The translations under genes and the position numbers were made by a program. Shown piece after piece: positions 10,788 through 54,922 of a stretch of 64,000 nt of DNA. Below the pieces are notes generated by a model. That model worked only from the letters and a program-made list of their open reading frames with translations. It ran no database searches and had not been told where the DNA came from. Source of the DNA: a virus; IMG/VR virus record IMGVR_UViG_3300011113_000396, positions 1 to 64,000 of that record, one strand, 5' to 3'. How positions within the stretch are numbered: position 1 is the first letter of the stretch; every line of letters starts with the position of its first letter.

Positions 10788-11257
10788 AGTTGCTTGAGAT
10801 TATACCACACTGTCTGTGAAATTCCAAGCAATGACTTCATGAAATTCTTAACTGAGAACTTTCCCCGTACTGGTTTCCAAAGTTTCTTTGGACATGTGGC
10901 ACCAGCAACAGTTAACTTTACAGTTAACCTTGCTCTTGGGTTCATTCCACAACCGCATAGTTTGCAATATCCTATCGGATCTTGTGGGGATTTAGCAAGA
11001 CCGGGACAGCTGAGGCACTGTTCTTTTCTGGCCTCAAATACTTTCTTGGATACTTCTGTAGTAAACGCGCTGTTTAATTCAAATATAAAATATGAAATTA
11101 TTTTTTTTAACTTATTTGATAATTTAAATGTTTTAATTATTTTGTTTTTTTGGTTTGCATTTATCAATATCAACGGAGAGTAAATATTTTTATTTTCTGG
11201 ATTTTTAATAGAAGGTAATTTAGAATTAAATTTTTCTATTACTCTAAATTTTTTCAT
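10763..11257 (-). CDS. Cys-rich small protein (DUF6171-like)
   Basis: R...CLSCP...CKLCGC...K......CP...W pattern; start MKKF overlaps the upstream stop. Confidence 0.6.
   Translation of the reverse strand: MKKFRVIEKFNSKLPSIKNPENKNIYSPLILINANQKNKIIKTFKLSNKLKKIISYFIFELNSAFTTEVSKKVFEARKEQCLSCPGLAKSPQDPIGYCKLCGCGMNPRARLTVKLTVAGATCPKKLWKPVRGKFSVKNFMKSLLGISQTVWYNLKQLCKSKKPN
10799..10827 (-). promoter_or_regulatory. Sigma70-type promoter for the guaC-denV-tRNA operon
   Basis: TTGGAA-17 nt-TATAAT with TG extension, 11 nt before the guaC ATG. Confidence 0.65.
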
Positions 11258-22841: not shown

Positions 22842-23414
22842 TCAATTATTTTTAAATGTATAAGTTCTAAAATTAAATTCTACAGTTGCAAACATAACAG
22901 CATTTTTTTCTGCTTCTCCAAATTCTAACGGAAAAATTCCAATAGGATATGCTTCAGAGAAAATAAATGTAGATGAAACTTTATCCTGCAAATTCAGAGA
23001 TACAAGAATTACTTGTCCGAGTATAGATGTATAATCATTTACATAGGTATAACGATTACCAGCAAACCCTGTCCCGCTACCATTTAACTTTGATCCATCG
23101 TTAACAATACTTTCTACCCAATCATTAATAGCTTTATAGTTTGTCCATTTAGCATCAACTGCCATAGTCAATAGCAAGGAACTTGTTTTATCAAAGTCAA
23201 AATTTACAGGCACATTTCTACCAATATTTGGACCGCTAGTAAAATCTCCAATGACTCCTACTGATTTGTTTGGAAACTTAACTGAAAATATTGGTATTGA
23301 ATTGGCAACTTCTTGCCCATTTCTTGTAATGCTTACTTCAAAGCGGTTGCTTCTTTGTAGTCCATAGGTCTCTACTTTATTTTTTATGTAATTTATTGAG
23401 CTGTTAATTTGCAT
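22842..23414 (-). CDS. gp54: Baseplate tail-tube initiator (gp19-fold)
   Basis: GLQRSNRFEV, W..., EAYP..I.PL, VEF.FR tube-family motifs; synteny. Confidence 0.65.
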   Translation of the reverse strand: MQINSSINYIKNKVETYGLQRSNRFEVSITRNGQEVANSIPIFSVKFPNKSVGVIGDFTSGPNIGRNVPVNFDFDKTSSLLLTMAVDAKWTNYKAINDWVESIVNDGSKLNGSGTGFAGNRYTYVNDYTSILGQVILVSLNLQDKVSSTFIFSEAYPIGIFPLEFGEAEKNAVMFATVEFNFRTYTFKNN

Positions 23415-23861: not shown

Positions 23862-24623
23862 ATGGGAGTTTATAGATATCCATTAGCATATGCAGCCGAA
23901 AATCCTTTCTGGATCTATTTTTCGGCAGCTGATTATTCTGTCAGAGCACAAAATAGAACTAGAGCTGGAGTGGCTTCTAGGGCTGTAGAGACAGTTATAT
24001 TACCTCTCCCTATGGTCTATAATCTTGAGACTAAGCATATGTTCAACGAAGAACTTAGCTTTGTCGGTCCACACCTAAGTGTTGCTGGTATGGCAAACTC
24101 CGGTGGACCATTAGCACTGACCGAAAGAATCGCATCATCAGTCTTTGGCTTTGTCGAACCTTTAGTAGCTACTGAAAGCTATAGACGTTTTTCAAATATC
24201 ACTGAATTGGCTATTTTGTCAGAAGCCAGAAGATCATTCCAGTTTCAATATTTATTTGTTCCAAAAAATACACAAGAAGCAGATGTGGTATGGACTATTT
24301 GCGATTTATTTAATACGATGTCTTATCCAGTCAGTGGAGGGGTTCCTGAAAAGGCGTATCCGCCACCGCTTTGGAGAATAGCTGGAAATAATTATAGAGT
24401 TACATCACAGTGGTTACAGGAACCATTGGTTTGCGTGTTGGCTGCTGTTGCAGTCAGCCCGATTCCTCAGCAAGATGCATATGTGCCTCGTTATAGAATC
24501 GATGGAAGCCCAGTGGCTACAAGACTATCGTTGACCTTTACAGAATTTGAACCCGGAACAAGAATTCCCGGTGCTCTTGGTGGTATTAGAAGCAAGTCTG
24601 AAATTGCGGCAGGATTAGGCTAA
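23862..24623 (+). CDS. gp48: Baseplate tail-tube cap
   Basis: YRYP, ILPLP, RRSFQFQY.F.PKN.QEA, YPPP.W, CVL..V, DG.PV...L.LTF.E. Confidence 0.75.
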   Translation: MGVYRYPLAYAAENPFWIYFSAADYSVRAQNRTRAGVASRAVETVILPLPMVYNLETKHMFNEELSFVGPHLSVAGMANSGGPLALTERIASSVFGFVEPLVATESYRRFSNITELAILSEARRSFQFQYLFVPKNTQEADVVWTICDLFNTMSYPVSGGVPEKAYPPPLWRIAGNNYRVTSQWLQEPLVCVLAAVAVSPIPQQDAYVPRYRIDGSPVATRLSLTFTEFEPGTRIPGALGGIRSKSEIAAGLG

Positions 24624-25325: not shown

Positions 25326-27722
25326 ATGCTTCCGAATTTTATTAAAATAAGAGAGATATCTTTTTATCATTATAGTACAGATGCCTTTGAATTAGTATTG
25401 AGTGGTGATACTGATATCGGTGATCCAACATTTACATTTGTTAGCGATTCTGTCTCAAGATCCATGTTTGAACGACTGGAATTCAGTAGTGGAATTGACA
25501 ACATTTATGCAAATGGAATATTAGTGTTAAGGGATCGCGGTGATATAGTCGGCAAATTAAATCCATCTGGTAAAGATATTATTAAAGTTGTTATCACTTC
25601 CGATGATGATGCATCTGAAGAAATTGAACAATATTATGTGGCATCAGAATGCTCATATTCAAGCGGAGCTACAGATAGAAAACATACCAAACTTGTTACA
25701 TTTAAACTTCTTTCATTGAATCTTTATAGAAATGAAAGAGCCATTAATAGCCAAAATATAACTGAACTCAAATATGGATTTATTGACAATAGCAATTTGA
25801 TGTTCAATAGAATATGTAATAACGCTGGATTTTATTATTCGGATACCGGAACAGGTCCATCGACAAGAACTTGTTATTATCTAAAAAATAAGAATCTGAT
25901 TTATCCAAATAACAGAGTTACTGATGACAGCCCAATGTCACATTTACTTTATATGAGTAAATATGCATTACCAGAAAATCCAGAGAATAATTATCCCTCT
26001 TATTTTGTGTATGATGATGCAAATACAAGTTTACAATTTAAAAATATAATTCCAGAGGATCCAGAAGCTGTTACTTATGAAAAGAAGTTTATTATTGGTA
26101 ATATTAATACCATTCAAGATAAAGAAGTACCCTTTGAAATTAAACCAACTAAGCAATTTTCGTTTTCGGAACTTATTAATTCTGGAGCATTAAGTTCATA
26201 TTACGAATGTGTTTTCCCAGATTTTTATAAACCTTATATTGATTTTTTGGGAAATACAGAATATATCAAAACTAATATAGAATATAATATTACCGATTTA
26301 AATCCAGATTTTGCAAATTTGTGTTCTGTCAATGACCGAGGATTATCTTATACTTTGTTGGATGAAGTAATTGATGGCGTTAGTTTCTTTTATAGTGCGT
26401 ATATACCAACAAAAAGATTCGTGGATAACAAACCCTATGGTTATTATGATACAACTTATTTAAATTTGCCATATGAACCAGTTTTTAATGTTTATGCGAA
26501 TATAGATTCTCCAAAAACCACTCTTAAAATTTATCAAACAATGTTTGATATTTTCCCTTATACAGATGATTTCTTAAATTCAACCAATGCTCCCGGAATA
26601 ACTTCCAGCAAGGCAATGGTTTCTAAGATAGTCCAAATATTGGACAGTGTTGAGAATGCCAAGAAAACGTATCACGAAACAATTACTCTCAAGGAGCAAT
26701 ATAATGTTTTTAAATACGTTCTTTGTTGTTTAGAGGGTGAAGGACCTGATGATGGTGCAGCATTTGATGCAGTTGTCAAATACAATAGAGTACTGACAAA
26801 TAGTTCAGATACTAAGCATCCGGTATATCTTTATACATTTAAAGAAGTAGAATTTGTACCCATCGATTTTAATGTTTTCTTTAGCGGATATGATACCTCT
26901 TTATCTGGAATCACAATTATAGGTGGCTCTTTAGCAGGAGTTACCATTCAAGGTATCACTCTTGATATTTCAAAATATGATACCTTCTATTGGCCTACTG
27001 GAGCTGTCACTACAATTTTTGATATTACTTTGGGTATGGCTGGTGTAGCAGATGCAGCCAAAAAGCATAATATACATTATATTCTTGCGGGTAAGAAGGA
27101 TGGACGTTCTGGATATTGTTTCAATACAAATGAAATGATGAATTTTCATATCAATCCAGAATCGCTTGGAAATACTTACACTTATTTTAACAATGGTATT
27201 ACATTGGGTGCGACTGGATTCTATTACGGGGGATCTGGATACGATCTATCCCTTAAGCAACTGATTCTTCGAACCAATACAAGCGGTACGATTGTTGATA
27301 CCTTTGCCTTCAATGATTATAGAATTATGCCCATTGGCTGTAATAAACAAAATTGGTCAATTGAAAATGGCGGTGAATATACTGATCCACCAGTTCAAGC
27401 TAATAATACTAAATGTAATATTCGTTCAAGGCATCATGTAACCAAAATAACACAGAAAAACATTACAGGTCTTAATGGACTAACAGGACTGACTTACACC
27501 TGTGTCGGTATAACTGCATTAGTAGCTGGTGTCACCCAAAATTTAACAATTTGCCCAAATACAAAGTATTATTTGTTCGATGTTCAAAATGCAATAGATG
27601 GTTTCTGCGGTATTGAGTGCGAACAGAGTGACAATACAAATCCAATATTTGGAATTCAAAGCACTCAATCTGATCCGTTTAGTTTCATCAAACCATTACC
27701 TACAGGTTATACAGCAATATGA
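25326..27722 (+). CDS. Baseplate hub (gp27-like) N-terminal part with large insertions
   Basis: Position after gp53; G.L.L.D and YF.Y......F hub-like segments; GxT-rich, Cys-containing C-terminal half. Confidence 0.5.
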   Translation: MLPNFIKIREISFYHYSTDAFELVLSGDTDIGDPTFTFVSDSVSRSMFERLEFSSGIDNIYANGILVLRDRGDIVGKLNPSGKDIIKVVITSDDDASEEIEQYYVASECSYSSGATDRKHTKLVTFKLLSLNLYRNERAINSQNITELKYGFIDNSNLMFNRICNNAGFYYSDTGTGPSTRTCYYLKNKNLIYPNNRVTDDSPMSHLLYMSKYALPENPENNYPSYFVYDDANTSLQFKNIIPEDPEAVTYEKKFIIGNINTIQDKEVPFEIKPTKQFSFSELINSGALSSYYECVFPDFYKPYIDFLGNTEYIKTNIEYNITDLNPDFANLCSVNDRGLSYTLLDEVIDGVSFFYSAYIPTKRFVDNKPYGYYDTTYLNLPYEPVFNVYANIDSPKTTLKIYQTMFDIFPYTDDFLNSTNAPGITSSKAMVSKIVQILDSVENAKKTYHETITLKEQYNVFKYVLCCLEGEGPDDGAAFDAVVKYNRVLTNSSDTKHPVYLYTFKEVEFVPIDFNVFFSGYDTSLSGITIIGGSLAGVTIQGITLDISKYDTFYWPTGAVTTIFDITLGMAGVADAAKKHNIHYILAGKKDGRSGYCFNTNEMMNFHINPESLGNTYTYFNNGITLGATGFYYGGSGYDLSLKQLILRTNTSGTIVDTFAFNDYRIMPIGCNKQNWSIENGGEYTDPPVQANNTKCNIRSRHHVTKITQKNITGLNGLTGLTYTCVGITALVAGVTQNLTICPNTKYYLFDVQNAIDGFCGIECEQSDNTNPIFGIQSTQSDPFSFIKPLPTGYTAI

Positions 27723-34244: not shown

Positions 34245-34661
34245 ATGTCTGATATAACAAACAAAGAACAACTCAATAATTTTCTAGAAATAACTAATCC
34301 AAAAACTTTGAAGCAAGAATCTTCTATAGTGAAGAAAAATGTAGAAGATGACTATGAATATGCTAGAGATAACATTAGAGAGATTCTAGAGAAGGGCAAA
34401 ATGGCTTTAGATGGCATTCTTCAGGTTGCTCAGGATGGAGACTCCCCCAGAGCATACGAAGTCGCTACAAATATGCTCAAGGCTCTCTCAGAGATCAATA
34501 AAGATCTCATGGATGTCCATGTTAAGGTCAAGGATAGTGAAAAAACCACAATTAAGCAAACCAATAACGCTATTTTTGTGGGTTCTACCTTAGATCTTCA
34601 AGACATGATAAATAAAGAAAGAAGCTCAAAGAAAGCGATAATACAGGACAACAATGTTTGA
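34245..34661 (+). CDS. gp16: Terminase small subunit
   Basis: DDYEYAR.N....EKG..AL.......SPRAYEV...NNAIFVGST.DLQ. Confidence 0.9.
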   Translation: MSDITNKEQLNNFLEITNPKTLKQESSIVKKNVEDDYEYARDNIREILEKGKMALDGILQVAQDGDSPRAYEVATNMLKALSEINKDLMDVHVKVKDSEKTTIKQTNNAIFVGSTLDLQDMINKERSSKKAIIQDNNV

Positions 34662-37600
34662 TTCATTTTATAACGATTGCATTAAAAAGAACACGATAGC
34701 ATTTGCTTCGTTATTTAACAACATCTATGTGAATAGAGAGGACACAGAGGAATCTAAAAAAATAAAAGTACCTCTAGTATATGGCGGTAAGGAAAAGTAT
34801 GTAAGTCGCCTTCAAAATCCGTCTAGTATTTCTGAAAAAGATAAGCTTCAAATAACTCTTCCCATGATGAGTTTTGATATGTCTAATCTGCAATACGATA
34901 CGCAGAGACATAGAAACAAACTTGAATTCAACAAGCTTTTTTATCAAGAAGAAGGTGAGACTAAAGCCAAAATTAAAATAGGCGAATATCCTTGCTTGAT
35001 GCAATTTAATCTTGCAATTTACACTCGTAATATTGAAGAAAATTTTCAAATTATTGAGCAAATTGCACCCTATTTCACGCCTGAATATATTCTTACTCTA
35101 GATTTTGATAAGACTTTGACTAGAGGTATTGATATTCCGATTAATCTAGTTGCATCAAAGATCGGAAATGACTATGAAGGTGGATTTGGCAATCGTAGAG
35201 CTGTAGTAAGTACCTTACAATTTGTAATGCGTACCTATTTGTTTGGTCCTGAGCGAGAAGCAACGCCAATTCTTACAACTGATTTTAATCTTAATACCCA
35301 AGACAGCTTTTTACAATTTATTACAGATGTTCAAGTCAATGATGACTTATATCTTAACAATCAATCTATTACAGTTACTTGGAGGCAGGGAGGTATTTTC
35401 CCCAGAAATCCAACTATCGTAATTACAAATCTTACAAACTACACCCAAGAAATAGTCTACGATCCAGAAACATTTGACGTTGGCGATGGAACTAATAGTG
35501 TTACATTTCCTATACCAGCTTCTGCTCCTTTGCTACAACAGTTATATGTAAGAGTATTTTTGGGCACAGTATCAGATAATTCGCCAGCATTTGAAATTAG
35601 ATCAGCTGCTGGAAATATTTCCTTGTTACGGTTGGCTAATTTTTCTGGGACAACTTTTAATGATTTGATGTCATCCAACCACTATTTCTTTACTCAAAGT
35701 GGTGTGACACAATTTCCAAGAGGCAACAATCTTGTCTTGGCTTATAATTATGGCTCATATAGCGATCTTAACATTAAAACGCCCGGATTACTTGAATATT
35801 ATCGTGCATTTGGCTTAACATTTAGAGCAAATACAATTGACAATCCACAAATTCCATTTGGTAGCGTTATACACAACGGCATGTGGGCTGGTATAAGTTA
35901 TGATCAGAACAGAGTTTTGCCTTGTTTAACAATTTACATGAGACCCGGAGCCAATGTAAATTTATATGCAAACCAAGGTGATGGGGTGTTCGGCACAACA
36001 CAAGGATCATTAGCAAATAGAAGAACAAGTGAGGATATGTTCCAAGCAACATATGGTTCTCAATCTTATTATATTAATGGATTTTGGGGATGGAATGGAA
36101 CTACAAGTACTATAAGTATTGGATCATATCCAACAGCTGGCATTACAATAGAGAGTGGTTTTAGTGGATATATTTTTGACAAAAATAATCAAAATAGATA
36201 TCCCGACACCGGAAAATATTCAACTGGTGTAACTCATTCTCAAGCAGGCCCATCAATAAGAACATTATTTGATCCAACATTTACTCAAAAGTTATATCCA
36301 AATCGTGGGGCAACAGGTCTAAGAGCTTGGCAAATTACTGCCTTTGGTAGTAATAATCCAGCTGATTTATTTTTTGATTCAAATGTAATTTCTGGTTCGA
36401 CTCTACCGATTTTTACTGCCAATCCCAATTTGTCCGGTTCTGATTTTAATTATCTTGATAACAATGATAAGATGAGATTTGGAACGTATATGGACTGTTA
36501 TAGAATAGCCCATAATGGAAACACATATTTGATTCCATCTCCATTTACTGCAAATCTTGTTACAGATATGCTTGGGTTTACTGCATATAAATCGACTGGA
36601 TTTACAGGCAGAGAAGAATTTGCTGGTAAGTTTGGAACAACCTATGTGGGAGGATGGAATAAATTATTTGATTTTGTTTATGCTGGAAAAAATATAAATG
36701 GTGTTACGTTTACCCCACCCACTCCATGCGTGGATATTATTTTCAATGATCATGAACTTAGATGGGGACTGGGTTTGGGTGCTGATGCCTTGATGATATG
36801 GAGATTCATGCTTTTGGTTGATGGGTTGACAACTGCTTGGATCAATAGAGTCAAACAAGATGAATTCTGGCCAAATCTTCAGGCCAAATATGCAGAATAT
36901 CCCGGCCTGTCTTTTGACAGAATCTTTGATAATATGAAAAATTCATTTATTCAGTTTACATCAGGACCTTTATCGAGAAAAGGTCTTCATGGAGGAATTC
37001 AGTTTTCTACTGATGCATTGCCATTGAATGAATTTTATGACAATGAGGTTAGAAAATATTGGTATGGACTTCAGGAAACAAGCGAAAGAAGAAGTCCGGG
37101 ATGCAAATTTGCTCCAGTTCATGTAAACAGAATTCCTAAATTAAAATCAGCTGCTCGTTTTAATGATGTAACAATTCAGAGCTTTTCTCAAGGAGTAACA
37201 TTACCATACGAATTAATATATCATTATCCTTATGGTTATCCTTATACTTTCTCAAATTATCAGGGAAGATATAGAAGAACAGGTTATGGCCCTACACCAT
37301 CTAATCCAATAGCATTACAAGGTGTAACAAATATAGTCATAAATCTAAATCCAACGGTACAACAAGTAAATATATCATCTGATAAGCTTGTTCCTTGGTT
37401 TATTGAGGACTCCGTTGGACAAACTGGTACAGCTTTTAATGTAGGTATTTCATATAATCAAACATATTTTGAAACAAACCAATTACCTACTACATTGGGG
37501 AACGGTACTTTTGTATCTTTCTTTGGTAAATATCAAGAACCTTCACTCTGGCCTACGGCGGGAAGATCTTTATCAGAAAAATATGAACCATTTTTTGCAA

Positions 37601-38724
37601 TAAAACACGAATCAAAAGAAATTCGTGGCGTAATTGAAGAAAATATGAGTCATGGGGTTTCTGGAATATTCATCTATAATAATATTTTATTTAATAGAGT
37701 AACATATCATGTTCCACATGGATATGAAAACAGTTGGTTTATGGATAGTTTACCTTCAGTTGCAAATAATTTTGCTAGAGGATTTACTTATAATGATCCT
37801 GCAATATTTTCAAAAACAGATTTTAGTGGGGTTGATCAAAGACAAAATCCAAATTACCAACCGATAAATTTTTATCATTCTTATAACGAAAATATATTCA
37901 TATCAAAATTATTAACACCGCTTCCACTTAATATTTTAAATCAAGCTGTAATTTTCCAAGGACCTATAACAAATGAAAATGATTCTAGTGCTGGGTATTA
38001 CGGAATTCACCCTAAATCTTGGAACAATTTTAAATACAATGATGAGATTTTATTAAATCATATTTTATGGGATATAGAAGTTGCTACCCATGGAAGAACA
38101 TATGAATATCTTTCTTCATCTGATGATATTTCAATGGAAGAAGCTTTAAGATATGAGGTTGGAGGATTTAATATCTCTAAATTGAATCCGGCTTTAGTTA
38201 GCAAAGTTAGATTGTTGGGTGTTACTGGGTCTGATCAAAATTTAATCTTACACAGAATTACTCTACCAATTCCATATATTTTAACAACTGATTATGCAAA
38301 ACCAGAACAGGGTTCATATTACGATAATTGGTATAATAATCATTTTGCTCAAAATGTTTTAGCCACAAGTGTCGATCCTTCCACTGGAACAACCCTTGAT
38401 AACATTAATCTTATCACGACTGGAAATAGAGATTTAGACTTCTATACTAAGTCTGTTGTAACAGAATCAAACGGTTCTCACTCATGGAGTACACTTAGAA
38501 CTGATAATAACATCAGACGTTTCAGTGTTGATGTTTTTGCTGGGACTCAATTAGTTGGAAACTTAGTACCAAGCAAATACTATCCAATGGGTGTTTGGTT
38601 GGTTACTGATGAAGTATCAATATTACCAGACGGAACCACGTTTAATAATTACAACTTAACTTTCCAATATCGTGATGCTGGTCCAATGGTTGATGGAATT
38701 ACTACTGCACCTTATAGAACATGA
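34654..38724 (+). CDS. gp15: Tail sheath stabilizer / tail terminator with ~1100-aa C-terminal extension
   Basis: First ~210 aa: AFASLFNNI, KVPL.YG.KEK, LPMMSF, QIIEQI.PYF.P; remainder is a GxT-rich unknown region. Confidence 0.85.
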   Translation: MFDSFYNDCIKKNTIAFASLFNNIYVNREDTEESKKIKVPLVYGGKEKYVSRLQNPSSISEKDKLQITLPMMSFDMSNLQYDTQRHRNKLEFNKLFYQEEGETKAKIKIGEYPCLMQFNLAIYTRNIEENFQIIEQIAPYFTPEYILTLDFDKTLTRGIDIPINLVASKIGNDYEGGFGNRRAVVSTLQFVMRTYLFGPEREATPILTTDFNLNTQDSFLQFITDVQVNDDLYLNNQSITVTWRQGGIFPRNPTIVITNLTNYTQEIVYDPETFDVGDGTNSVTFPIPASAPLLQQLYVRVFLGTVSDNSPAFEIRSAAGNISLLRLANFSGTTFNDLMSSNHYFFTQSGVTQFPRGNNLVLAYNYGSYSDLNIKTPGLLEYYRAFGLTFRANTIDNPQIPFGSVIHNGMWAGISYDQNRVLPCLTIYMRPGANVNLYANQGDGVFGTTQGSLANRRTSEDMFQATYGSQSYYINGFWGWNGTTSTISIGSYPTAGITIESGFSGYIFDKNNQNRYPDTGKYSTGVTHSQAGPSIRTLFDPTFTQKLYPNRGATGLRAWQITAFGSNNPADLFFDSNVISGSTLPIFTANPNLSGSDFNYLDNNDKMRFGTYMDCYRIAHNGNTYLIPSPFTANLVTDMLGFTAYKSTGFTGREEFAGKFGTTYVGGWNKLFDFVYAGKNINGVTFTPPTPCVDIIFNDHELRWGLGLGADALMIWRFMLLVDGLTTAWINRVKQDEFWPNLQAKYAEYPGLSFDRIFDNMKNSFIQFTSGPLSRKGLHGGIQFSTDALPLNEFYDNEVRKYWYGLQETSERRSPGCKFAPVHVNRIPKLKSAARFNDVTIQSFSQGVTLPYELIYHYPYGYPYTFSNYQGRYRRTGYGPTPSNPIALQGVTNIVINLNPTVQQVNISSDKLVPWFIEDSVGQTGTAFNVGISYNQTYFETNQLPTTLGNGTFVSFFGKYQEPSLWPTAGRSLSEKYEPFFAIKHESKEIRGVIEENMSHGVSGIFIYNNILFNRVTYHVPHGYENSWFMDSLPSVANNFARGFTYNDPAIFSKTDFSGVDQRQNPNYQPINFYHSYNENIFISKLLTPLPLNILNQAVIFQGPITNENDSSAGYYGIHPKSWNNFKYNDEILLNHILWDIEVATHGRTYEYLSSSDDISMEEALRYEVGGFNISKLNPALVSKVRLLGVTGSDQNLILHRITLPIPYILTTDYAKPEQGSYYDNWYNNHFAQNVLATSVDPSTGTTLDNINLITTGNRDLDFYTKSVVTESNGSHSWSTLRTDNNIRRFSVDVFAGTQLVGNLVPSKYYPMGVWLVTDEVSILPDGTTFNNYNLTFQYRDAGPMVDGITTAPYRT

Positions 38725-40355: not shown

Positions 40356-43300
40356 ATGGCTGAATTAACACACTCACATAACATTAGCGGAACTCTTATA
40401 GGCCTTACACCCGGAAGTGCTCCTTTAACCGTTGGATTAACCTTTTCTGTTGATGGTGTGTCATTCTCCTCTGTAAATTTTGATCTTCGCATTGATGTAG
40501 ATACTTTTGATTTAAGTGTTCCTTATACTTCTATTGATACTTTTAGAGAATTAAATGGAAGTTCAGAAGTTCTAATTGCAAATAATTCAAATGGACTTAT
40601 TGTTAGTAACACTGGAACTACATGGAACCATTTTATTGGAATTACATTATATTCCCCGCAACAAAATATTTTTAATGCCGGATTAGCAAATCAAATGCTA
40701 GCTGGTGATTTACATTATCGAACAAGAGCAAATAATTTTTCTTTAAAATATGGAGCGTTTGGTCAAACAGGAAGTGGCCAAATAGCAGAAGTCGCATCAT
40801 CAACAAGAGGCGAAACACTTTCATTTAGACCATTTAATATTGTTTCGGCTACAAATGGAGTTGCAGGATCCACTCTCGGATTAACTTTACAATCTGCTAA
40901 TATTCAAAGATATTATGTTGGTATTGGTACTGGTGCAACATTTTTTGGTATTGTTTCATTACTAGGATGCACCAATGGTATTAATTTAAATTCTTCTAAT
41001 TTAACATCTACACAAATTTCAGAAATAAATGCTGATTACTTAGATCCTAATATTTCTGGTACTGATTCAAAATTCAATACACTCAGAAGAATTATTGATA
41101 ATTCTGGTACAACAATATTCAATACTTCTTATACAGAATTTGTAGTGCCAAAACATATTCCGACTGGAAGTTATTATTTAATGCCAATCCCAAATTCATT
41201 TTTTGGACTTCCGGCATTTAGCAATGACGAATCCTTTACAGCTTCGGGACAAAATATTAATTTATCACAAACAAATATTAATATTACAAATAATATATCT
41301 TCTGGGTTGACTGGAGTTTATAGTTTATCATCTGGTGTAACGCATTTTACAACGGCAATATCAACAAGACTTCCAATTGTATCACAAGCCTTTTCTAATG
41401 TAGATTTTGCTGATAAAACTTTTTCGATATTTGATCCAATAACATTTAATTTAGTTACATCTCCCTATGGAATTACAAATAATTTAACAGGAAATACGTT
41501 TCATAAGTTAGATTATGGCTTTAATAATAGAGGAACAACTAACTATGGAGGTGCTTTAACGGATAATCCTGTATCTCATGTACCACCATTATTTGGATTT
41601 ATTCCTATTGGATTAACTATTGGAAATACTCTAACTGTATTATTAGATGGTATTACATTTTACGAAAAAATTTATAATCCATATAATGTTAATTTTAATA
41701 ATACATCACTTGCACATTTTTATACAAGTGAAAGTACTATACAAAATAATAAACGTTTTATACGTTTAATAAATGAATCTGGCGATTTAGCTGCTAAAAG
41801 AAATTTAAATCACATCAATAGAGCATTTTATAGAGTTGATTTTAATAATCATGCTAATCCTTGGGGATTTACTGGATTTACTTTTGGTCAAGGATCTACA
41901 CAAAGCCAATTAAAGGTATTTTACGGTAATCCTGCAAATGGTATATCATTTATTCTACCAATAAATACAGGCTCACCAGCAGACTTTTACTCGTTAACCG
42001 GGCAAGACGTTTTTATTCCGATTCAAGGCACTGCTAGTGGATCTACATTGACCCCGGGAGCTTCTGTTGAAATACACTATCAAAATAGACCACTTGGGTA
42101 TCTAGAAAAATTAAATTTATATAATGCATCTGGTAATTTTGCTTTAGGAATTACTATTGCGGATAATAGAACCTTTATTCCAAAAAACACAACTGAATTG
42201 GGATATATAAGAAAAAACTTTGATCAATCTAATGTTGAAACTTTTATTGTCCCAAATTTAAATAGTGTTGGATCTACTGGAACTGCAAGAATATCATTTA
42301 TTAGAGGGGATGGAGTAAGTTTTGAATTTGGCTCAACTCCGATCACAACTCCATTTAGAACATTTTCACCTATACACACGATAGGAAATATTTCTGGACT
42401 GACGTTAATCGCAACTGGGGTTACACAATCAACAAGCCCAACAAGCTTTACAAGATTTATTGCTCCTGCTGTTGATTTAATGCGAATAACTGTAAATCAT
42501 GGCCTAACAAATCTTGAGTCCGGAATAATTGGAAGAAATAATATCCACAGTAGATATTATATGCAATCAAATGTTGATAATTTTTTAACTGATGGTAGTT
42601 TCTATAGAGGTTATTTGAGTTTTATACTTGATTCTGTCGGTCCAGAAAATGTTGTAAATAATGGTATTAGTGTTACAAATCGTACATTGCGTTCTTTTAG
42701 AGAAGCTGCTTTAGAACGTGCTAATAACATAAATGCTATAAATGGCATTTCTTTGAGTATTCCTTTGAGAAATTTTCAAGGTGTTATCACTGAAGGTTGG
42801 CCATTCGATACAATTGAAGGTAATAGTTCATTAACTCAATTGATGAACTATTTTAATGGCCCACCATTGACCGAGGCTCAATTATCAGCAGTTGCAGACA
42901 CATTTAATTATCCTCAATATGATACCGGGTTTACACTTATGTTTGATCAGGGTGACAGTCCGGATGAGACTTTTAATAACGGGGAATGGTTTCTTGCAAA
43001 TCCTCAATCGTTCTTAAGATATTCCAGTGGCAGCACGTTCTTCCCATCAACTGCATTTAGTTTTGATAATACCACGATAAGCTTTCCACACTACATTTTC
43101 TATGACTATAGAATTACTGGTGTGACTTTATCATCTACATCTTCTGTTCAATCGCAACAATCATTAACAACAACAATAACTGTACAAGATTTACCTCACG
43201 CATCAATTTTTGATGGATTAAGACTATCAGTTCTTAATGGTACTTCTGAAGTGTTTACAAAAAATTTATTATATACAACTTCTAGCAGTAATGATTATAG

Positions 43301-44738
43301 AATACCCGGTTATTCTGGGTTAGGTGTAACAAATTATGCTGCTTATTATACAACTACTCCAAGGGCAATAACTGGTATTTTTGTAGGTAGTGGAGTTACG
43401 TTAGGGGGAATAACTATTAGTCCCCCAGCAACTGGTTGGCCAGCTTCTGCGACTCTTACTGTAAGAGTAAGTCCAATATTTAAATCATTTATTAATATTA
43501 CAAGTGATGTTGATGTTTTACGGACTAATTCTTATGTTAGAGATACATCATTCTCAACTGCTGCTCAACCAACAACTGGTGGGGGTGGTGGTGGATCGTC
43601 TAGTGGATCCGTAAGCGTATCAGAATCTGTTGTTACTGGTGTCGCTTTCACCTCAACCGAAAACGATTTCTATGCAGGATTCCTCTGTGGTACTACTGCT
43701 TATAATATTATTACAAATAATAGTACTGCTTCGTATTCAGTACTAACCAGTAGCAGCACAGCCTACGCCAACGCCAAGGCTGCGTTTGATGCTGGAACTC
43801 TAACGTCAAACACTTCAACAGACATTGAAATTCATTCTTTACTTAACTATATGGATTACGGTGGAAACATAATTGTTGCCCCAACAATTGATGGATTGTT
43901 AGGAAGCAATTATGAATATGATGTAGTATTTGCTGAAGACAATAAGAGATATGGTGAATTGATGCGTATTGGTTCTGAAAAGAATCATGCAATTGTTATT
44001 GTTGGAACCTCCCTTGAAGAGGATGCAGCCTCATTTGCAGCTCCAGCATATACTAATCTCAATTCAGCAGGGCTTGTTGATGGATTGACCTATATGACAA
44101 CTGCAAATAAGGGTGAATATGTGTTCTCAGTGCTAGGATACAAGAATAGAACCCGTTTCTATGGTTCCGGAACTGATACTGTTCGCCTTTATCTGTCCTC
44201 TGATGTTGCAGGCGCATATGCTCGTTCGTATGTAGAGAATAAATACCACTTATCAAGCTCTGGTTCGATTAGAGGCGGAATCAAAACTTATTCAAATATT
44301 ACTCCAACTATTGTAGATCGTGATCTCTCTGGCTATTACACCAGAGGTATCAACCCAATCTACATTCCAAGCGGTACAAACAGAGCTGCTATTTGGGGAG
44401 ATGCCACTGGTATTACTACAGGAAACGAAGTATATAGAAAGTCGGCTTCAATCTCCAAGAACACTAGCACAATTAAGAGAGAATTCAAGAAGATCTTTGA
44501 AGACTTCCAATTTGAACAAAATAATGCTGGTACAAGAGCACAATTCGTTTCAAGAGCAACTACTGTTCTTGATAAGTTGCAATCTGTTGGTGGCCTTGCT
44601 TCTTACACGTTAATTTGCAATGAAACAAACAATACCCCAACTGTAATTGCACAGAAGAGATTGGTTGTTGACTTGACAATAGTACCTAATAATTCAATCG
44701 AATCTATAGTCTTGAATTTTGTTCTTAATCAAATCTAA
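40356..44738 (+). CDS. gp18: Tail sheath paralog 1: ~1075-aa N-terminal extension + Gly/Ser linker + minimal sheath domain
   Basis: C-terminal RGINPI, WGD.T, FQFEQNN..TR, ICNETNNTP.VI, DL.I.P..SIE.I.LNF. Confidence 0.8.
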   Translation: MAELTHSHNISGTLIGLTPGSAPLTVGLTFSVDGVSFSSVNFDLRIDVDTFDLSVPYTSIDTFRELNGSSEVLIANNSNGLIVSNTGTTWNHFIGITLYSPQQNIFNAGLANQMLAGDLHYRTRANNFSLKYGAFGQTGSGQIAEVASSTRGETLSFRPFNIVSATNGVAGSTLGLTLQSANIQRYYVGIGTGATFFGIVSLLGCTNGINLNSSNLTSTQISEINADYLDPNISGTDSKFNTLRRIIDNSGTTIFNTSYTEFVVPKHIPTGSYYLMPIPNSFFGLPAFSNDESFTASGQNINLSQTNINITNNISSGLTGVYSLSSGVTHFTTAISTRLPIVSQAFSNVDFADKTFSIFDPITFNLVTSPYGITNNLTGNTFHKLDYGFNNRGTTNYGGALTDNPVSHVPPLFGFIPIGLTIGNTLTVLLDGITFYEKIYNPYNVNFNNTSLAHFYTSESTIQNNKRFIRLINESGDLAAKRNLNHINRAFYRVDFNNHANPWGFTGFTFGQGSTQSQLKVFYGNPANGISFILPINTGSPADFYSLTGQDVFIPIQGTASGSTLTPGASVEIHYQNRPLGYLEKLNLYNASGNFALGITIADNRTFIPKNTTELGYIRKNFDQSNVETFIVPNLNSVGSTGTARISFIRGDGVSFEFGSTPITTPFRTFSPIHTIGNISGLTLIATGVTQSTSPTSFTRFIAPAVDLMRITVNHGLTNLESGIIGRNNIHSRYYMQSNVDNFLTDGSFYRGYLSFILDSVGPENVVNNGISVTNRTLRSFREAALERANNINAINGISLSIPLRNFQGVITEGWPFDTIEGNSSLTQLMNYFNGPPLTEAQLSAVADTFNYPQYDTGFTLMFDQGDSPDETFNNGEWFLANPQSFLRYSSGSTFFPSTAFSFDNTTISFPHYIFYDYRITGVTLSSTSSVQSQQSLTTTITVQDLPHASIFDGLRLSVLNGTSEVFTKNLLYTTSSSNDYRIPGYSGLGVTNYAAYYTTTPRAITGIFVGSGVTLGGITISPPATGWPASATLTVRVSPIFKSFINITSDVDVLRTNSYVRDTSFSTAAQPTTGGGGGGSSSGSVSVSESVVTGVAFTSTENDFYAGFLCGTTAYNIITNNSTASYSVLTSSSTAYANAKAAFDAGTLTSNTSTDIEIHSLLNYMDYGGNIIVAPTIDGLLGSNYEYDVVFAEDNKRYGELMRIGSEKNHAIVIVGTSLEEDAASFAAPAYTNLNSAGLVDGLTYMTTANKGEYVFSVLGYKNRTRFYGSGTDTVRLYLSSDVAGAYARSYVENKYHLSSSGSIRGGIKTYSNITPTIVDRDLSGYYTRGINPIYIPSGTNRAAIWGDATGITTGNEVYRKSASISKNTSTIKREFKKIFEDFQFEQNNAGTRAQFVSRATTVLDKLQSVGGLASYTLICNETNNTPTVIAQKRLVVDLTIVPNNSIESIVLNFVLNQI

Positions 44739-44748
44739 TAAATAGTAT

Positions 44749-45882
44749 ATGCCGATTACCACAACCACACAATCAAACACATTTAACATCACCCCAGTAT
44801 CTGCTACAGATCACTATACTGGGTTTTTGTGTTCCACATCGACATATAATTTATTAGGAACAACTGCTGATTCATTTACGAATCTTGAAACTATTTCAGA
44901 CTCTATTTCTACATTAGCGGGAAGAACAAGCTATACCAGTATTACCACAAATAGTCTAGTTGACAGAGAAATCCATTCAATATTTAATTGCATGGAATAT
45001 GGTGGTAAAATGGTTATTTCTGGGACTACTGCTGGACTAGCCTTATCGTCAGCTAAAATTTCAGAAGTTATAGCCGAGGATACCTCTAGATACAGCGACG
45101 TAATTAGTGTAGCCAAAGCTAGACTGAATTGCAATGCAATTATTGGTTCTGACAGAGATCAGAGTGGGGACTACACCACTCCTGATCAAGCATCAATTAT
45201 ATCCTCAGTATCAACTCAATTGGGGTCTACTGGCACAACAGCAATTTCTTATCTCGCAGCCACAATTATTGGTTATAAGGAAAGGCCAAGATTCTACACA
45301 GGTAGTTCATCCTCTACAAGCGCAATTACAATTTTCCTTGTGTCTGATGCTGCTGGAGCAAATGCTAGAGCGTCAGCACAATCAAAACCATATTTAACCT
45401 CTGCTGGTGTTTATAGAGGAGAACTTTTAAATTATACAAATGTTACCCCTAAGCTCTCGTTTACATCATCAACAACACTAGCCTCAAGAGGAATTAATTA
45501 TTATAATTATCTCCAATCAAAGGGTAAATATTATCTTTGGGGCGATGAAACAGGATTTAGAGATAGCACAAGTGCTAAAAGTTCTTATGGTTTCTCCAAA
45601 GCATTCCTTTATATTAACCGCGAAGTAACTTCCATATTGGATGATTATGTCTTTGAATTTAATGATGCTACCACTAGGTCAGCAATCAAATCAAAGATGC
45701 AGAATATACTTGATCCGATGATTTCAAGCGGTTCTTTGGTAAGTTATACTTTGATTTGCGACGAAACTAATAATCCACAAACAGTAATCAATCAGAGACA
45801 GCTTAAAGTAGATCTAACAATAGTACCAAATCTACCAGTTAAGAGCATTACTTTAAGCTTTAGCATATCTCTGTTATCATGA
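44749..45882 (+). CDS. gp18: Tail sheath paralog 2 (minimal, 377 aa)
   Basis: RGIN, WGD.T, YVFEFND..TR, ICDETNNP..VI; AATAAATA box 4 nt upstream. Confidence 0.8.
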   Translation: MPITTTTQSNTFNITPVSATDHYTGFLCSTSTYNLLGTTADSFTNLETISDSISTLAGRTSYTSITTNSLVDREIHSIFNCMEYGGKMVISGTTAGLALSSAKISEVIAEDTSRYSDVISVAKARLNCNAIIGSDRDQSGDYTTPDQASIISSVSTQLGSTGTTAISYLAATIIGYKERPRFYTGSSSSTSAITIFLVSDAAGANARASAQSKPYLTSAGVYRGELLNYTNVTPKLSFTSSTTLASRGINYYNYLQSKGKYYLWGDETGFRDSTSAKSSYGFSKAFLYINREVTSILDDYVFEFNDATTRSAIKSKMQNILDPMISSGSLVSYTLICDETNNPQTVINQRQLKVDLTIVPNLPVKSITLSFSISLLS

Positions 45883-47291
45883 ACATAGTTAACTACGGAC
45901 AAACTACAGTACCAAGCGATTTTAAAATTCTCGCTTTTGTATCTCCATTAACGCAAAGTGTTTTGTCCGGAATAACTACTTCAAGTCTTGGGTCTGATCA
46001 ATTAACATATGTAGAGTCGTTAGAAGATTTTGTAGATACTTTATTTGGTTATACTGCTATAACTTTTCAAGCTGGATCAGGAGCAACTGCTGAGAAAATA
46101 ACGGATGTGGAGTTACATGGCATAATGACGATGCTTGAATATGGAGCATCTGTATATGTTATGAATACTACTGGTTTAACAGAATCAGGTGCATATACAA
46201 CAAAAAATATTCAAAGCGTTATTAACTCGACAGGTGCAGGGTGCATTGTTAACAATGTATTTGATGGATTGACTGGTTCTGGGTTTACTGGAATACAAGA
46301 TACTCCAATAATAATTCAAAATACAGATTTTGAACAAAGATTATTAAATTATTTTATCACAGAAGTTAATGATCCCGGAAATACAGCTGGAACCCCCTTT
46401 ACATATAACGATCAGCTGGGCGAAATATATGCCAATTTTCAAGATGACATTCAGCCATCTGATACATTTACAGAATTATTTCCTTCATTAGGTAAGTTTG
46501 CTTATGATACATTTCCATCGGCAGTTTATGGAACTTCAGAATATAATAATTTTATCGTATCCAACGGAAAATTAATCGATCAAAATATTATAGAGCTTTT
46601 GGGTATTAAGATAAGAAATAGATGTATCAATCCAGAGACAAACCCAGAATCTACAAGTGAACTTTGGACTAAAATTCCGGTTCCGATGGTTTATGATCTA
46701 GCTGGTCAGTTTTCAAGGCTTAATTTAGCCGGAACTCCATGGAGCAGCACATCAAATTTCTTGGTAGGTCCATTGCTTAATATTGTTCAAGACGATGGTG
46801 AATATGTTTTGCCGTTTTCGGATAGCAATTCAGTGGCTGAGTTTAAAAATACCATCACCGGACTTATCAATAATAGAATAAATTATGCAACTTTCTATAG
46901 TTTTGACGGAATTTATGGTTGCTATTTCTTAAGTGATCTGACTTGCGAATCTCAAACTGATAATTCGGCTCCATTTACGCTGGCTCAAAGCGAAAAAAGC
47001 GTTTATTTTGTAAACATTACAAAGTATATTAAAACTAAAATTTCATCAATTTGTGAAAATTATGTGTTTGAACTAAACAATGAGATAACTCGTTTACAGT
47101 TAACATCTGAAATATTAACCTTCATGAATGGATTGCTGTCTGACGGAGCTATTAATAACTTTAATATTGTTGCGGATGATACAAATAACACATTTGAAGA
47201 TCGTATAAATAGAAGGTTGAGGGTAGATGTATCCTATACAACTAATCCAACAAATGATTTTGTGGAGCAATCAATAATTATCATACCTTAA
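45879..47291 (+). CDS. gp18: Tail sheath paralog 3 (diverged, 470 aa)
   Basis: DLAG..SR, NRIN, YVFELNN..TR, DDTNNT......L.VDV. Confidence 0.7.
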   Translation: MNIVNYGQTTVPSDFKILAFVSPLTQSVLSGITTSSLGSDQLTYVESLEDFVDTLFGYTAITFQAGSGATAEKITDVELHGIMTMLEYGASVYVMNTTGLTESGAYTTKNIQSVINSTGAGCIVNNVFDGLTGSGFTGIQDTPIIIQNTDFEQRLLNYFITEVNDPGNTAGTPFTYNDQLGEIYANFQDDIQPSDTFTELFPSLGKFAYDTFPSAVYGTSEYNNFIVSNGKLIDQNIIELLGIKIRNRCINPETNPESTSELWTKIPVPMVYDLAGQFSRLNLAGTPWSSTSNFLVGPLLNIVQDDGEYVLPFSDSNSVAEFKNTITGLINNRINYATFYSFDGIYGCYFLSDLTCESQTDNSAPFTLAQSEKSVYFVNITKYIKTKISSICENYVFELNNEITRLQLTSEILTFMNGLLSDGAINNFNIVADDTNNTFEDRINRRLRVDVSYTTNPTNDFVEQSIIIIP

Positions 47292-47318
47292 AATACATAG
47301 ATAATAGGGTAGAAAACG

Positions 47319-47852
47319 ATGAGCAACGCAAATTCACTAAGTTATTTTAAACAAAAATTCAACGGTGGTACTCGCCAAAATCGATTTGAGGTTGAGGGAC
47401 AATGGCCGAATATTTCGGAAAATCCCAAAACATGCTTTCATATTGTTTCTGCAAGTATGCCACAGTCAGATGTTGGCATAATTCAAATTCCTTACAGAGG
47501 AAGAGTTTTAAATATAGCTGGAGATAGAGAATATGAAGCTTGGAACTTAGTGATTTATGATGACACAGGTACTAATTCTTTATGGAAAGCATTTACAAGT
47601 TGGTCTAACATAATTAATAAAATTTCTGGAAATACCATAAATCCTCAAAATGTAAATTTTAGAAATGTAAAAACTAATTGGAAAGTAAGACAACTTAATA
47701 CAACTAACAATGGAACTATTCGTGAACTTGAGTTGTTGGGTTGTTGGCCAGCTTCTGTAGGAGCTTTAAATTTCAATGCTTCAAATGTTAATCCTGTTGT
47801 TTTTAATGTAACTATGAATTACGATCAATTTAGGATAACAAAATACTCATGA
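47319..47852 (+). CDS. gp19: Tail tube protein paralog 1
   Basis: GGTRQNRFEV, IPYRGR...IAGDR.Y..W....YDD, WP..VG, F.VT..YD. Confidence 0.9.
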   Translation: MSNANSLSYFKQKFNGGTRQNRFEVEGQWPNISENPKTCFHIVSASMPQSDVGIIQIPYRGRVLNIAGDREYEAWNLVIYDDTGTNSLWKAFTSWSNIINKISGNTINPQNVNFRNVKTNWKVRQLNTTNNGTIRELELLGCWPASVGALNFNASNVNPVVFNVTMNYDQFRITKYS

Positions 47853-48424
47853 GCTGCGATAGCAAAATTTCAACTTTCAGAGATGCATTCGCATCATTCC
47901 CAAGAGGAAACAGATATTCCATTTCAGGTCAAATTCCCAATTCAAATAATGGATGGGGTAATGATAATACTGGTGGATTTCATATTCATGCTTTGGCATT
48001 GAATGTTCCTCCAGCAAATCTTACAACTCTTCGATACAATTATAGAGGTAGAACCCTCAAAAATCCCGGAGATAGACTATTTCCATTTTGGAATGTCACT
48101 ATTTTGGACGATACAGGGACTGATACCGTGTGGGAAGCGTTCCACAAATGGAGTAACAGTATCAATGATCATGATTCAAATTTAAGAACTACCTCCGCTT
48201 CAAGCTATGATTCTTATAAGCAGAATGGATGGATAGTTAAGCAATTAGGTCTCAACGGAGATACGATTAAAAGCGTAACTCTTGACGGTTGCTTTCCTTA
48301 CATTGTTGGACCAATTGAGCTTGATATGAATCAAAAAAATACCGTTTGTCAATTTAGCATGGTAATAGCATACGATAGCGTGGTTGATGTGTTTACAAAA
48401 GACGGAACAATTAATATTAATTAA
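47849..48424 (+). CDS. gp19: Tail tube protein paralog 2
   Basis: RGNRY, YRGR..K.PGDR.F..W.VTILDD, AFHKW, FP..VGPI.L. Confidence 0.85.
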   Translation: MSCDSKISTFRDAFASFPRGNRYSISGQIPNSNNGWGNDNTGGFHIHALALNVPPANLTTLRYNYRGRTLKNPGDRLFPFWNVTILDDTGTDTVWEAFHKWSNSINDHDSNLRTTSASSYDSYKQNGWIVKQLGLNGDTIKSVTLDGCFPYIVGPIELDMNQKNTVCQFSMVIAYDSVVDVFTKDGTININ

Positions 48425-54400: not shown

Positions 54401-54922
54401 ATGGCGCAAGCTGATTATCCAGTTAATATTAGTCAACTTAATAGAAATTTTTATACCTTTAAGTTGTCTAGAATACCTACTACAACCTTCTTTTTACAGA
54501 AGGTTACTTTGCCGGGTATTCTATCCCCAAATTTTGATCAGCCAACCACATTAGGTGTTCCAGTAAAAAGACCACTTGGAACCTATAATTTCGCAAATCT
54601 TGATATTGAATTTATTGTAGATGAAAATATGACTAACTGGTTGGAGATTTATAGATGGATGAGAAATATAGGTAATCTTGATTCGGATTGCACTTATAAT
54701 ATTCCCGAAAATAAATTTACATCAACTGGAACTCTTATCATTCAGAAGAGTTCATATACAGCAAATATTACTACCACCTTCTTTGATATATTTCCTATAT
54801 CATTGGGGGGAATTGGCTTTGATACTACACTTCCAGCATCCGAGCCAGCAAGAGTAAGTGCATCATTTGCCTATACATACTATAGCTTTAGTCCAGATCC
54901 GGGAAATACTACTTTAGATTGA
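54401..54922 (+). CDS. gp3: Tail completion / tube terminator
   Basis: F.L.R.P...FF.Q.V.LPG, L.I.F.VDE.M.NW.EI..W, F...FP.SL.G..FD; TATACATA 4 nt upstream. Confidence 0.88.
   Translation: MAQADYPVNISQLNRNFYTFKLSRIPTTTFFLQKVTLPGILSPNFDQPTTLGVPVKRPLGTYNFANLDIEFIVDENMTNWLEIYRWMRNIGNLDSDCTYNIPENKFTSTGTLIIQKSSYTANITTTFFDIFPISLGGIGFDTTLPASEPARVSASFAYTYYSFSPDPGNTTLD

Follow-up and report, generated by a model that had tools for sequence, protein, structure and literature searches.

Three sheath and two tube paralogues in tandem in an uncultured T4-like phage: a probable multi-protein contractile tail reached independently of injection machines

The tail of phage T4 is the textbook contractile tail, in which one sheath protein and one tube protein are stacked in a uniform helix. 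A three-sheath parts list has so far been described for two extracellular contractile injection systems (eCIS), the antifeeding prophage (Afp) of Serratia entomophila and the Photorhabdus virulence cassette (PVC). These systems carry three tandem sheath genes of core size, encoding about 350-450 amino acids (aa) each (Afp2-4 and Pvc2-4), and more than one tube-fold protein (Afp1 and Afp5, Pvc1 and Pvc5). In the PVC, a Pvc4 initiator ring surrounds Pvc5, and layers of Pvc2 and Pvc3 alternate above it; the Pvc3 knob is thought to dock fibres, and Pvc5, the second eCIS tube protein, has been equated with T4 gp54 (bioRxiv 10.1101/2025.04.20.649488). Duplicated phage sheath genes have been noted in a survey of sheath evolution (PMC9230969). 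In jumbo Pseudomonas phage PaBG, the two sheath copies are reported to be 38% identical and derived by gene duplication (PMC7412058), and the sheath has been described as two-component (Kurochkina et al. 2018, Virology 515:46, cited in PMC6357053). Here we analysed a 64,000-nucleotide stretch of viral DNA (the window), the first 64 kb of the 113,452-bp IMG/VR record IMGVR_UViG_3300011113_000396, which is about 62% complete by CheckV. In it, the interval between terminase gp17 and portal gp20 holds three gp18-family (sheath) and two gp19-family (tube) genes in tandem.

The five genes probably specify a contractile tail built from several sheath and tube proteins, a composition that would have been reached independently of the injection machines. 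Their coordinates in the window, with the parts of the first gene, are as follows.

40356-44738, + strand: sheath 1, 1460 aa; matches phrog_23 and PF17482
40356-43577, + strand: sheath 1 N-terminal region, residues 1-1074; beta-rich, rich in Thr, Ser, Gly and Asn, two modules
43578-43610, + strand: linker GGGGGGSSSGS, sheath 1 residues 1075-1085, read from the sequence
43611-44738, + strand: sheath 1 core, about 375 aa, A-type
44749-45882, + strand: sheath 2, 377 aa, core-only A-type; matches phrog_23 and PF17482
45879-47291, + strand: sheath 3, 470 aa, B-type; matches phrog_23 and PF17482
47319-47852, + strand: tube 1, 177 aa, gp19 family; matches phrog_45
47849-48424, + strand: tube 2, 191 aa, gp19 family; matches phrog_45

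Profile searches placed all three sheaths in the PHROG family phrog_23 'tail sheath' (E = 1.7e-22, 8.2e-26 and 6.6e-14 for sheaths 1, 2 and 3), and all scored just above the 26.9-bit cut-off of Pfam family PF17482 Phage_sheath_1C (27.1, 27.3 and 31.4 bits, respectively). Their translations contain the motif block EIHSLLNYMDYGG / EIHSIFNCMEYGG / ELHGIMTMLEYGA. Compared with the C-terminal 357 aa of sheath 1, sheath 2 aligned to residues 1104-1458 at 35% identity over 365 aa (E = 1e-61); it aligned with the C-terminal half of sheath 3 at 27% identity over 194 aa (E = 3e-14) in addition to the motif block. Profile-profile comparison of the A-type and B-type sheaths gave a full-length alignment of 370 columns (probability 100%, E = 1e-81). 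The full two-domain sheath core is thus covered both within the A type (365 aa) and between A and B (370 columns). T4-type gp18 was the best match among solved chains for all three paralogues, and T4 gp18 was the best solved relative of the sheath 1 core (E = 1.2e-13) and of sheath 2 (E = 1.2e-11). Sheath 3 has additional residues in the middle of the protein, at about 145-225. A low-confidence AlphaFold2 (AF2) model of sheath 3 (predicted local distance difference test, pLDDT, 56) returned only sheath proteins as its top Foldseek matches (E = 3e-6 to 1e-3), with low template-modelling (TM) scores of 0.27-0.33 over about 480-500 aligned columns. On the profile evidence the sheath-family assignment of the three genes is solid, and sheath 1 is a complete sheath core preceded by a region of about 1,075 aa and a poly-Gly linker.

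Both tube genes matched phrog_45 'tail tube' (E = 4.7e-32 for tube 1 and 3.5e-25 for tube 2). With Pfam PF06841 Phage_T4_gp19, tube 1 scored 25.3 bits, under the 28.2-bit cut-off, and tube 2 gave no match. The two proteins are 34% identical (E = 9e-31), and a quick tube tree placed both inside the gp19 clade (support 96), separate from gp3 and gp54. Other tube-related genes are present separately in the window.

22842-23414, - strand: gp54-like gene
23862-24623: gp48-like gene
54401-54922: gp3-like gene

Because these genes are accounted for elsewhere, tube 2 is a genuine extra gp19 paralogue and not the equivalent of Pvc5. The count of tube-fold proteins is five in this phage against four in T4. 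An earlier reading of the window, made from the sequence alone, had described three tandem gp18-family genes with a shared block, their sizes, the two gp19 genes that follow them, and an N-terminal region of about 1075 aa joined through GGGGGGSSSGS near position 43580; all of this agrees with the open reading frames (ORFs), the family matches and the gp19-clade placement given above. Its contrast with a T4 that has one tube gene was too simple, as T4 has further tube-fold proteins and Pvc5 has been equated with one of them, gp54.

The same reading had called the composition Afp/PVC-like. As a parts list this held, with three sheath and at least two tube-fold genes in tandem, and in both systems one paralogue bears an extra surface element (the Pvc3 knob in the PVC, the sheath 1 module in the phage). 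As a statement of lineage it did not hold: T4 gp18 was the nearest solved relative, and the sheaths are nested among T4-like gp18 (see below). Sheath 1 and sheath 3 had no Afp or Pvc chain match at E <= 1, while sheath 2 showed one marginal match, to PlPVC1 chain 9qgl (E = 0.074). A joint tree with Afp2-4 and Pvc2-4 could not be relied on at 10-12% identity, and the relation was judged by these nearest-relative searches and the gp18 tree. The phage sheaths resemble the Afp and Pvc proteins at the level of the fold only, and the two systems are alike in composition only. Further differences are that the five genes belong to a phage that also encodes terminase, portal and capsid proteins, whereas Afp and PVC are capsid-less tail-like particles specified by bacterial or plasmid clusters; that no eCIS sheath is known to bear a 1,075-aa N-terminal module; and that the counterpart of the second eCIS tube is T4 gp54, for which the phage has a separate gene. 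On these comparisons, the likeness to Afp/PVC is convergent and reflects an independent duplication.

The surrounding genes confirmed the T4-like context that had been proposed. The order from 32.5 to 57 kb is gp13, gp14, gp16, gp15, gp17, the five tail genes, gp20, gp21, gp22, gp23, gp3, UvsY and UvsW, with the prohead protease (gp21), scaffold (gp22) and major capsid protein (gp23) downstream of the tail genes. This is the gene order of marine T4-like phages, and the portal shares about 50% identity with those of cyanomyoviruses; the clade consists of uncultured T4-like (Kyanoviridae-like) phages. T4 and the cultured Kyanoviridae (Synechococcus phage S-SM2 and Pelagibacter phages HTVC008M and Mosig) have the same neighbourhood (gp15-gp17-[sheath]-[tube]-gp20...gp23-gp3), but with a single sheath of 639-748 aa that carries inserted outer domains, and a single gp19. 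PaBG is likewise a phage with duplicated sheath genes; it has two copies, not three, is unrelated to the T4 group, and neither a tethered giant module nor a tube duplication is mentioned for it in the text consulted. Literature searches returned no description of duplicated gp18 or gp19 in T4-like phages. New elements of the present locus are the three sheaths within the T4 group together with a duplicated gp19, the two-step history of sheath duplication, and the giant sheath module tethered at the N-terminus.

All five genes were intact, with lengths kept, in 12 related IMG/VR loci (77-99% identity). Ratios of non-synonymous to synonymous substitution rates (dN/dS) were obtained from three of these loci, at synonymous divergences (dS) of 0.5-1.9. 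Over all five genes the ratio was 0.015-0.26, indicating purifying selection. Tube 2 was the most conserved of the five (about 0.02), equal to the portal gp20 used for comparison (about 0.02), followed by the sheath 1 core (0.03-0.04) and sheath 2 (0.03-0.05, with 87-96% identity among relatives). Higher values were found for tube 1 (0.08-0.10), sheath 3 (about 0.10) and the sheath 1 N-terminal region (0.17-0.40). The division into a slow pair (sheath 2 and tube 2) and a faster pair (sheath 3 and tube 1) suggests a bulk set and a specialised set. The 113-kb record holds no fourth sheath gene, and none was found in two related records (81 and 49 kb). The sequence-only reading had allowed for the copies being in decay, or for a canonical full-length gp18 elsewhere in the genome; the low dN/dS and the 12 intact loci speak against the former, and the latter is absent as far as the 113-, 81- and 49-kb records reach.

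A maximum-likelihood (ML) tree of 33 sequences over 405 columns was used to order the duplications. The core-only sheaths formed a clade (support 100/100) nested among T4-like gp18, and the A and B types grouped together (97/96). The A clade contained the sheath 1 core, sheath 2 and sheath A of contig L021 (99/96); inside this clade, the sheath 1 core was sister to sheath 2 (98/95). The B clade contained sheath 3, the second sheath of L020 and L021, and proteins of about 430 aa (97/89). An exhaustive HMMER search with sheath 3 likewise returned its own cluster, then the proteins of about 430 aa at 26-31% identity, and nothing else; among the cultured phages of the INPHARED set, no relative of sheath 3 was found. 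One of the proteins of about 430 aa is encoded in contigs L020-L022. In this distant lineage gp15 (344 aa) is followed by gp16, gp17, sheath A (389 aa), sheath B (437 aa), a pair of tubes (169-177 aa and 181 aa) and gp20. Full-length identity was 30% between L021 sheath A and sheath 2, and 26% between L021 sheath B and sheath 3. In the tube tree, tube 1 grouped with the first tube of L021 and L022, and tube 2 with the second. From the groupings in the sheath and tube trees we infer three steps. The outer domains of gp18 would have been lost, leaving a core-only sheath of about 400 aa; the duplications into A and B sheaths and into tubes 1 and 2 would have followed in an ancestor common with the L021 lineage; and the A type would then have duplicated in the window's lineage into sheaths 1 and 2, one copy gaining the N-terminal region. 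Sheath and tube paralogues are merely 27-35% identical, which argues that they are old. The local duplication proposed for this phage is thus borne out by the ML tree, but it is not confined to this phage, since it proceeded in two steps, is older, and is represented by a two-sheath, two-tube arrangement in the distant L020-L022 lineage.

A survey covered 46 contigs spanning gp17 to gp20. One sheath with one tube was the commonest composition (27 contigs), followed by one sheath with two tubes (11 contigs) and one sheath with three tubes (4 contigs). Two sheaths with two tubes occurred in 1 contig, and three sheaths with two tubes in 3 contigs, which make up the window's clade. A further contig, L028, encodes a sheath of at least 1012 aa (L028:2-3040) in which about 730 aa are inserted inside the fold, the N-terminal part of the core lying near residue 47 and the C-terminal part occupying residues 781-1012; it is followed by a 418-aa core-only sheath (L028:3075-4331) and then by a tube gene. 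The survey counts and L028 together indicate that tandem duplication of gp19, and less often of gp18, is a recurrent event among uncultured T4-like phages. A single sheath of core or middle size, with two or three tubes of the gp19 clade in tandem behind it, was seen in L046-L049, L051-L054, L056, L060-L061, L064, L070, L086 and L090, and by the tube tree the tube duplications look independent in several of these lineages. Two large tandem sheath-family ORFs of about 670-1030 aa each occur in L096, L098-L100, L102 and L104, which may be jumbo-phage two-sheath lineages like PaBG.

The N-terminal region of sheath 1 was compared among its homologues, which are limited to proteins of the same architecture (1426-1485 aa, 37-89% identical) and one form of 886 aa. 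Residues 1-577 make up the most variable module, and residues 578-1074 are more conserved. Mean pairwise identity was 0.24-0.65 over the first 900 or so residues and climbed to 0.7 near the linker. The 886-aa form (P0090) is without the hypervariable distal module and starts at the equivalent of residue 578, where invariant columns begin; it could be a genuine variant or a truncated gene call. This exact coincidence suggests that the region is modular, with a hypervariable distal and a conserved proximal part. A run of 6-8 Gly was present in 10/10 homologues, and the segment S(V/I)SVSESVVTGVAFT directly after the linker, the counterpart of the sheath 2 N-terminal arm in the alignment, was likewise conserved. 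Column identity in the core was 83-100% among homologues whose N-terminal regions share just 24-70%. Such a conserved core beside a variable N-terminal region fits a lattice-type constraint on the core. An internal start that could yield a free core sheath was sought at the linker, but neither an in-frame ATG, GTG or TTG nor a GGAGG was found there.

Searches of the N-terminal region gave no Pfam or PHROG match and no usable match in the ESM Atlas, and neither a paralogue elsewhere in the window nor an internal repeat was detected. An AF2 model built from 12 homologues was unreliable (mean pLDDT 41). Comparison with 48,161 chains using VIA-align showed that residues 916-1071, approximately, resemble a generic immunoglobulin/fibronectin type III-like (Ig/FN3-like) sandwich, with Z scores of at most 7.7 that lie within background. 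Positions 40356-43640 encode 41% Thr, Ser, Gly and Asn, with raw counts of 35 G-x-T and 24 N-x-S/T motifs. Other large decorated sheaths are those of AR9 (987 aa) and Atu_ph07 (1086 aa) (PMC9230969). Like L028, which also adds a core-only sheath, they carry hundreds of extra residues on the sheath subunit; in all three, however, the extra mass is inserted within the fold, whereas that of sheath 1 precedes the entire core on a poly-Gly tether.

Taken together, we favour a reading, at a probability of roughly 0.5, in which each of the five genes specifies a functional part of the tail, with the bulk formed by sheath 2 and tube 2 and limited layers by the others. The three sheath proteins would co-assemble in one contractile lattice through their retained N- and C-terminal arms. 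Most of the trunk would consist of sheath 2 and tube 2, the pair under the strongest constraint, while the faster-evolving sheath 3 and tube 1 would form a few specialised layers, either an adaptor or end, or periodic rings (compare Pvc4/Pvc5 or Pvc3). Sheath 1 would take sheath 2-like lattice positions, its 1,075-aa module held outside on a thin poly-Gly tether, and mixing with bare subunits would prevent crowding on contraction. A place in the lattice is argued for by the constraint on the whole core, the retained arm segment and the invariant tether of minimal cross-section. The variability of the tip of the module suggests an exposed, host-facing role, and the tip would most likely contact the host surface or dock fibres. 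Pairing in silico of sheath 2 with sheath 3 lends this reading weak support: the score was 0.57 against 0.00 for the best control, the runs had 76% or more of their contacts in common, with a partner pLDDT of 57 or higher. The pairing mark was reached by 58/80 solved complexes and 2/110 mismatched pairs, although at scores of 0.60 or below it was reached by only 7/80 solved complexes and by both of the passing mismatches.

Several points weigh against this reading. The pairing result may reflect memory of solved sheath lattices on the part of the predictor. Lower dN/dS is the sole basis for assigning sheath 2 and tube 2 to the bulk, and codon usage does not favour that assignment, as the codon adaptation index (CAI) relative to gp23 is higher in the sheath 1 core (0.54) than in sheath 2 (0.45) or sheath 3 (0.40). 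The inner handshake of a trunk subunit may leave room for an N-terminal fusion in an end ring only. Tandem tubes are also found in single-sheath lineages, so that the sheath and tube paralogues do not have to function in pairs, and the record itself is only about 62% complete. Neither codon adaptation, GC content at third codon positions (GC3) and effective number of codons (Nc) nor upstream ribosome-binding sites decided the stoichiometry, and no enrichment of the T4 late-promoter motif NATAAATA was seen (12 observed, about 22 expected).

An evenly mixed or strictly alternating heteropolymer would differ from the favoured arrangement in having all sheaths and tubes in comparable amounts along the trunk, as in PaBG or the Pvc2/Pvc3 layers, and the sheath would then be 'hairy' over its full length. 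The alternating layers of the PVC and the two-component sheath of PaBG provide precedents, the constraint on the sheath 1 core equals that on sheath 2, its codon adaptation relative to gp23 exceeds that of the other two sheaths, and the overlaps of stop and start codons (ATGA) between sheath 2 and sheath 3 and between tube 1 and tube 2 are compatible with coupled translation. We nonetheless regard this arrangement as unlikely: the rates of evolution of sheath 3 and tube 1 are 2-5 times those of sheath 2 and tube 2, which is unexpected for equivalent positions, and general sheath geometry implies crowding in the contracted state if at least a third of the subunits bore a 1,075-aa module. Sheath 1 might instead lie outside the contractile lattice, its core serving to anchor the module at one site (the neck near the enlarged gp15, or the baseplate rim), or its N-terminal region acting as an intramolecular chaperone or pro-region that is removed by cleavage at the poly-Gly after assembly. 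Sheath subunits are joined by a handshake of their terminal arms (bioRxiv 10.1101/2025.04.20.649488), and a large N-terminal fusion may fit only where a handshake arm is free. The gp15 tail terminator also has an extension, of 1,107 aa, and the invariant poly-Gly could be a processing site. Such a role appears doubtful, as a dN/dS of 0.03-0.04 over the whole core, arm segment included, would not be needed for a mere anchor. The N-terminal region also evolves fast yet under purifying selection (0.17-0.40), like an exposed part of the virion and not a discarded pro-region, and no protease motif or sign of cleavage was found.

That the extra copies are redundant, decaying or an artefact of assembly, with one sheath and one tube in use, is highly improbable. 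Tandem paralogues can be short-lived and the record is a metagenomic assembly, but the five genes are intact in 12 independent loci from different samples, and each of them shows purifying selection up to a dS of about 1.9. In addition, the 27-35% identity of the paralogues marks them as old, and the L021 lineage diverged after the A/B and tube 1/tube 2 splits had taken place. The dN/dS values, the intact loci and the ML tree all contradict this explanation.

If the favoured reading of five working tail parts is correct, a clade of T4 relatives would have stripped its sheath to the core and then regained complexity by duplication. As an independent natural experiment, the locus could reveal what sets the order of paralogous sheath and tube subunits within a single lattice. 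It could also indicate how a sheath that contracts is able to bear large cargo or adhesin domains, a point of practical use in engineering sheath nanotubes and eCIS-like delivery particles. A bolder version, which we put forward tentatively and consider rather unlikely, is that the apparatus for host recognition or adhesion is borne by the sheath itself. In some of the sheath subunits a poly-Gly tether would pass out through the wall and display a modular, rapidly diversifying domain of 120 kDa, and paralogue-specific handshakes among the three sheath and two tube proteins would fix the order of rings, giving the tail a programmed heterogeneity from end to end that arose in the T4 lineage independently of Afp/PVC.

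Other features of the window and its relatives were recorded. The gene for gp15, the tail sheath stabiliser or terminator, lies at 34654-38724 (+) and encodes 1356 aa, of which residues 1-230 only are the gp15 part; the 1,107-aa extension had no PHROG or Pfam match and is dissimilar to the sheath 1 N-terminal region. In relatives, gp15 is 240-344 aa. The small terminase gene gp16 (34245-34661, +) lies upstream of gp15, while in T4 and L020 it is found between gp15 and gp17. Two further long ORFs had no PHROG match, one of 1404 aa in the structural region (11254-15468, -) and one of 798 aa among the baseplate genes (25326-27722, +). In L080-L083, L051 and L054, the ORFs for the large terminase subunit are 942-1462 aa against the usual 545-590 or so, which suggests inserted elements such as inteins.

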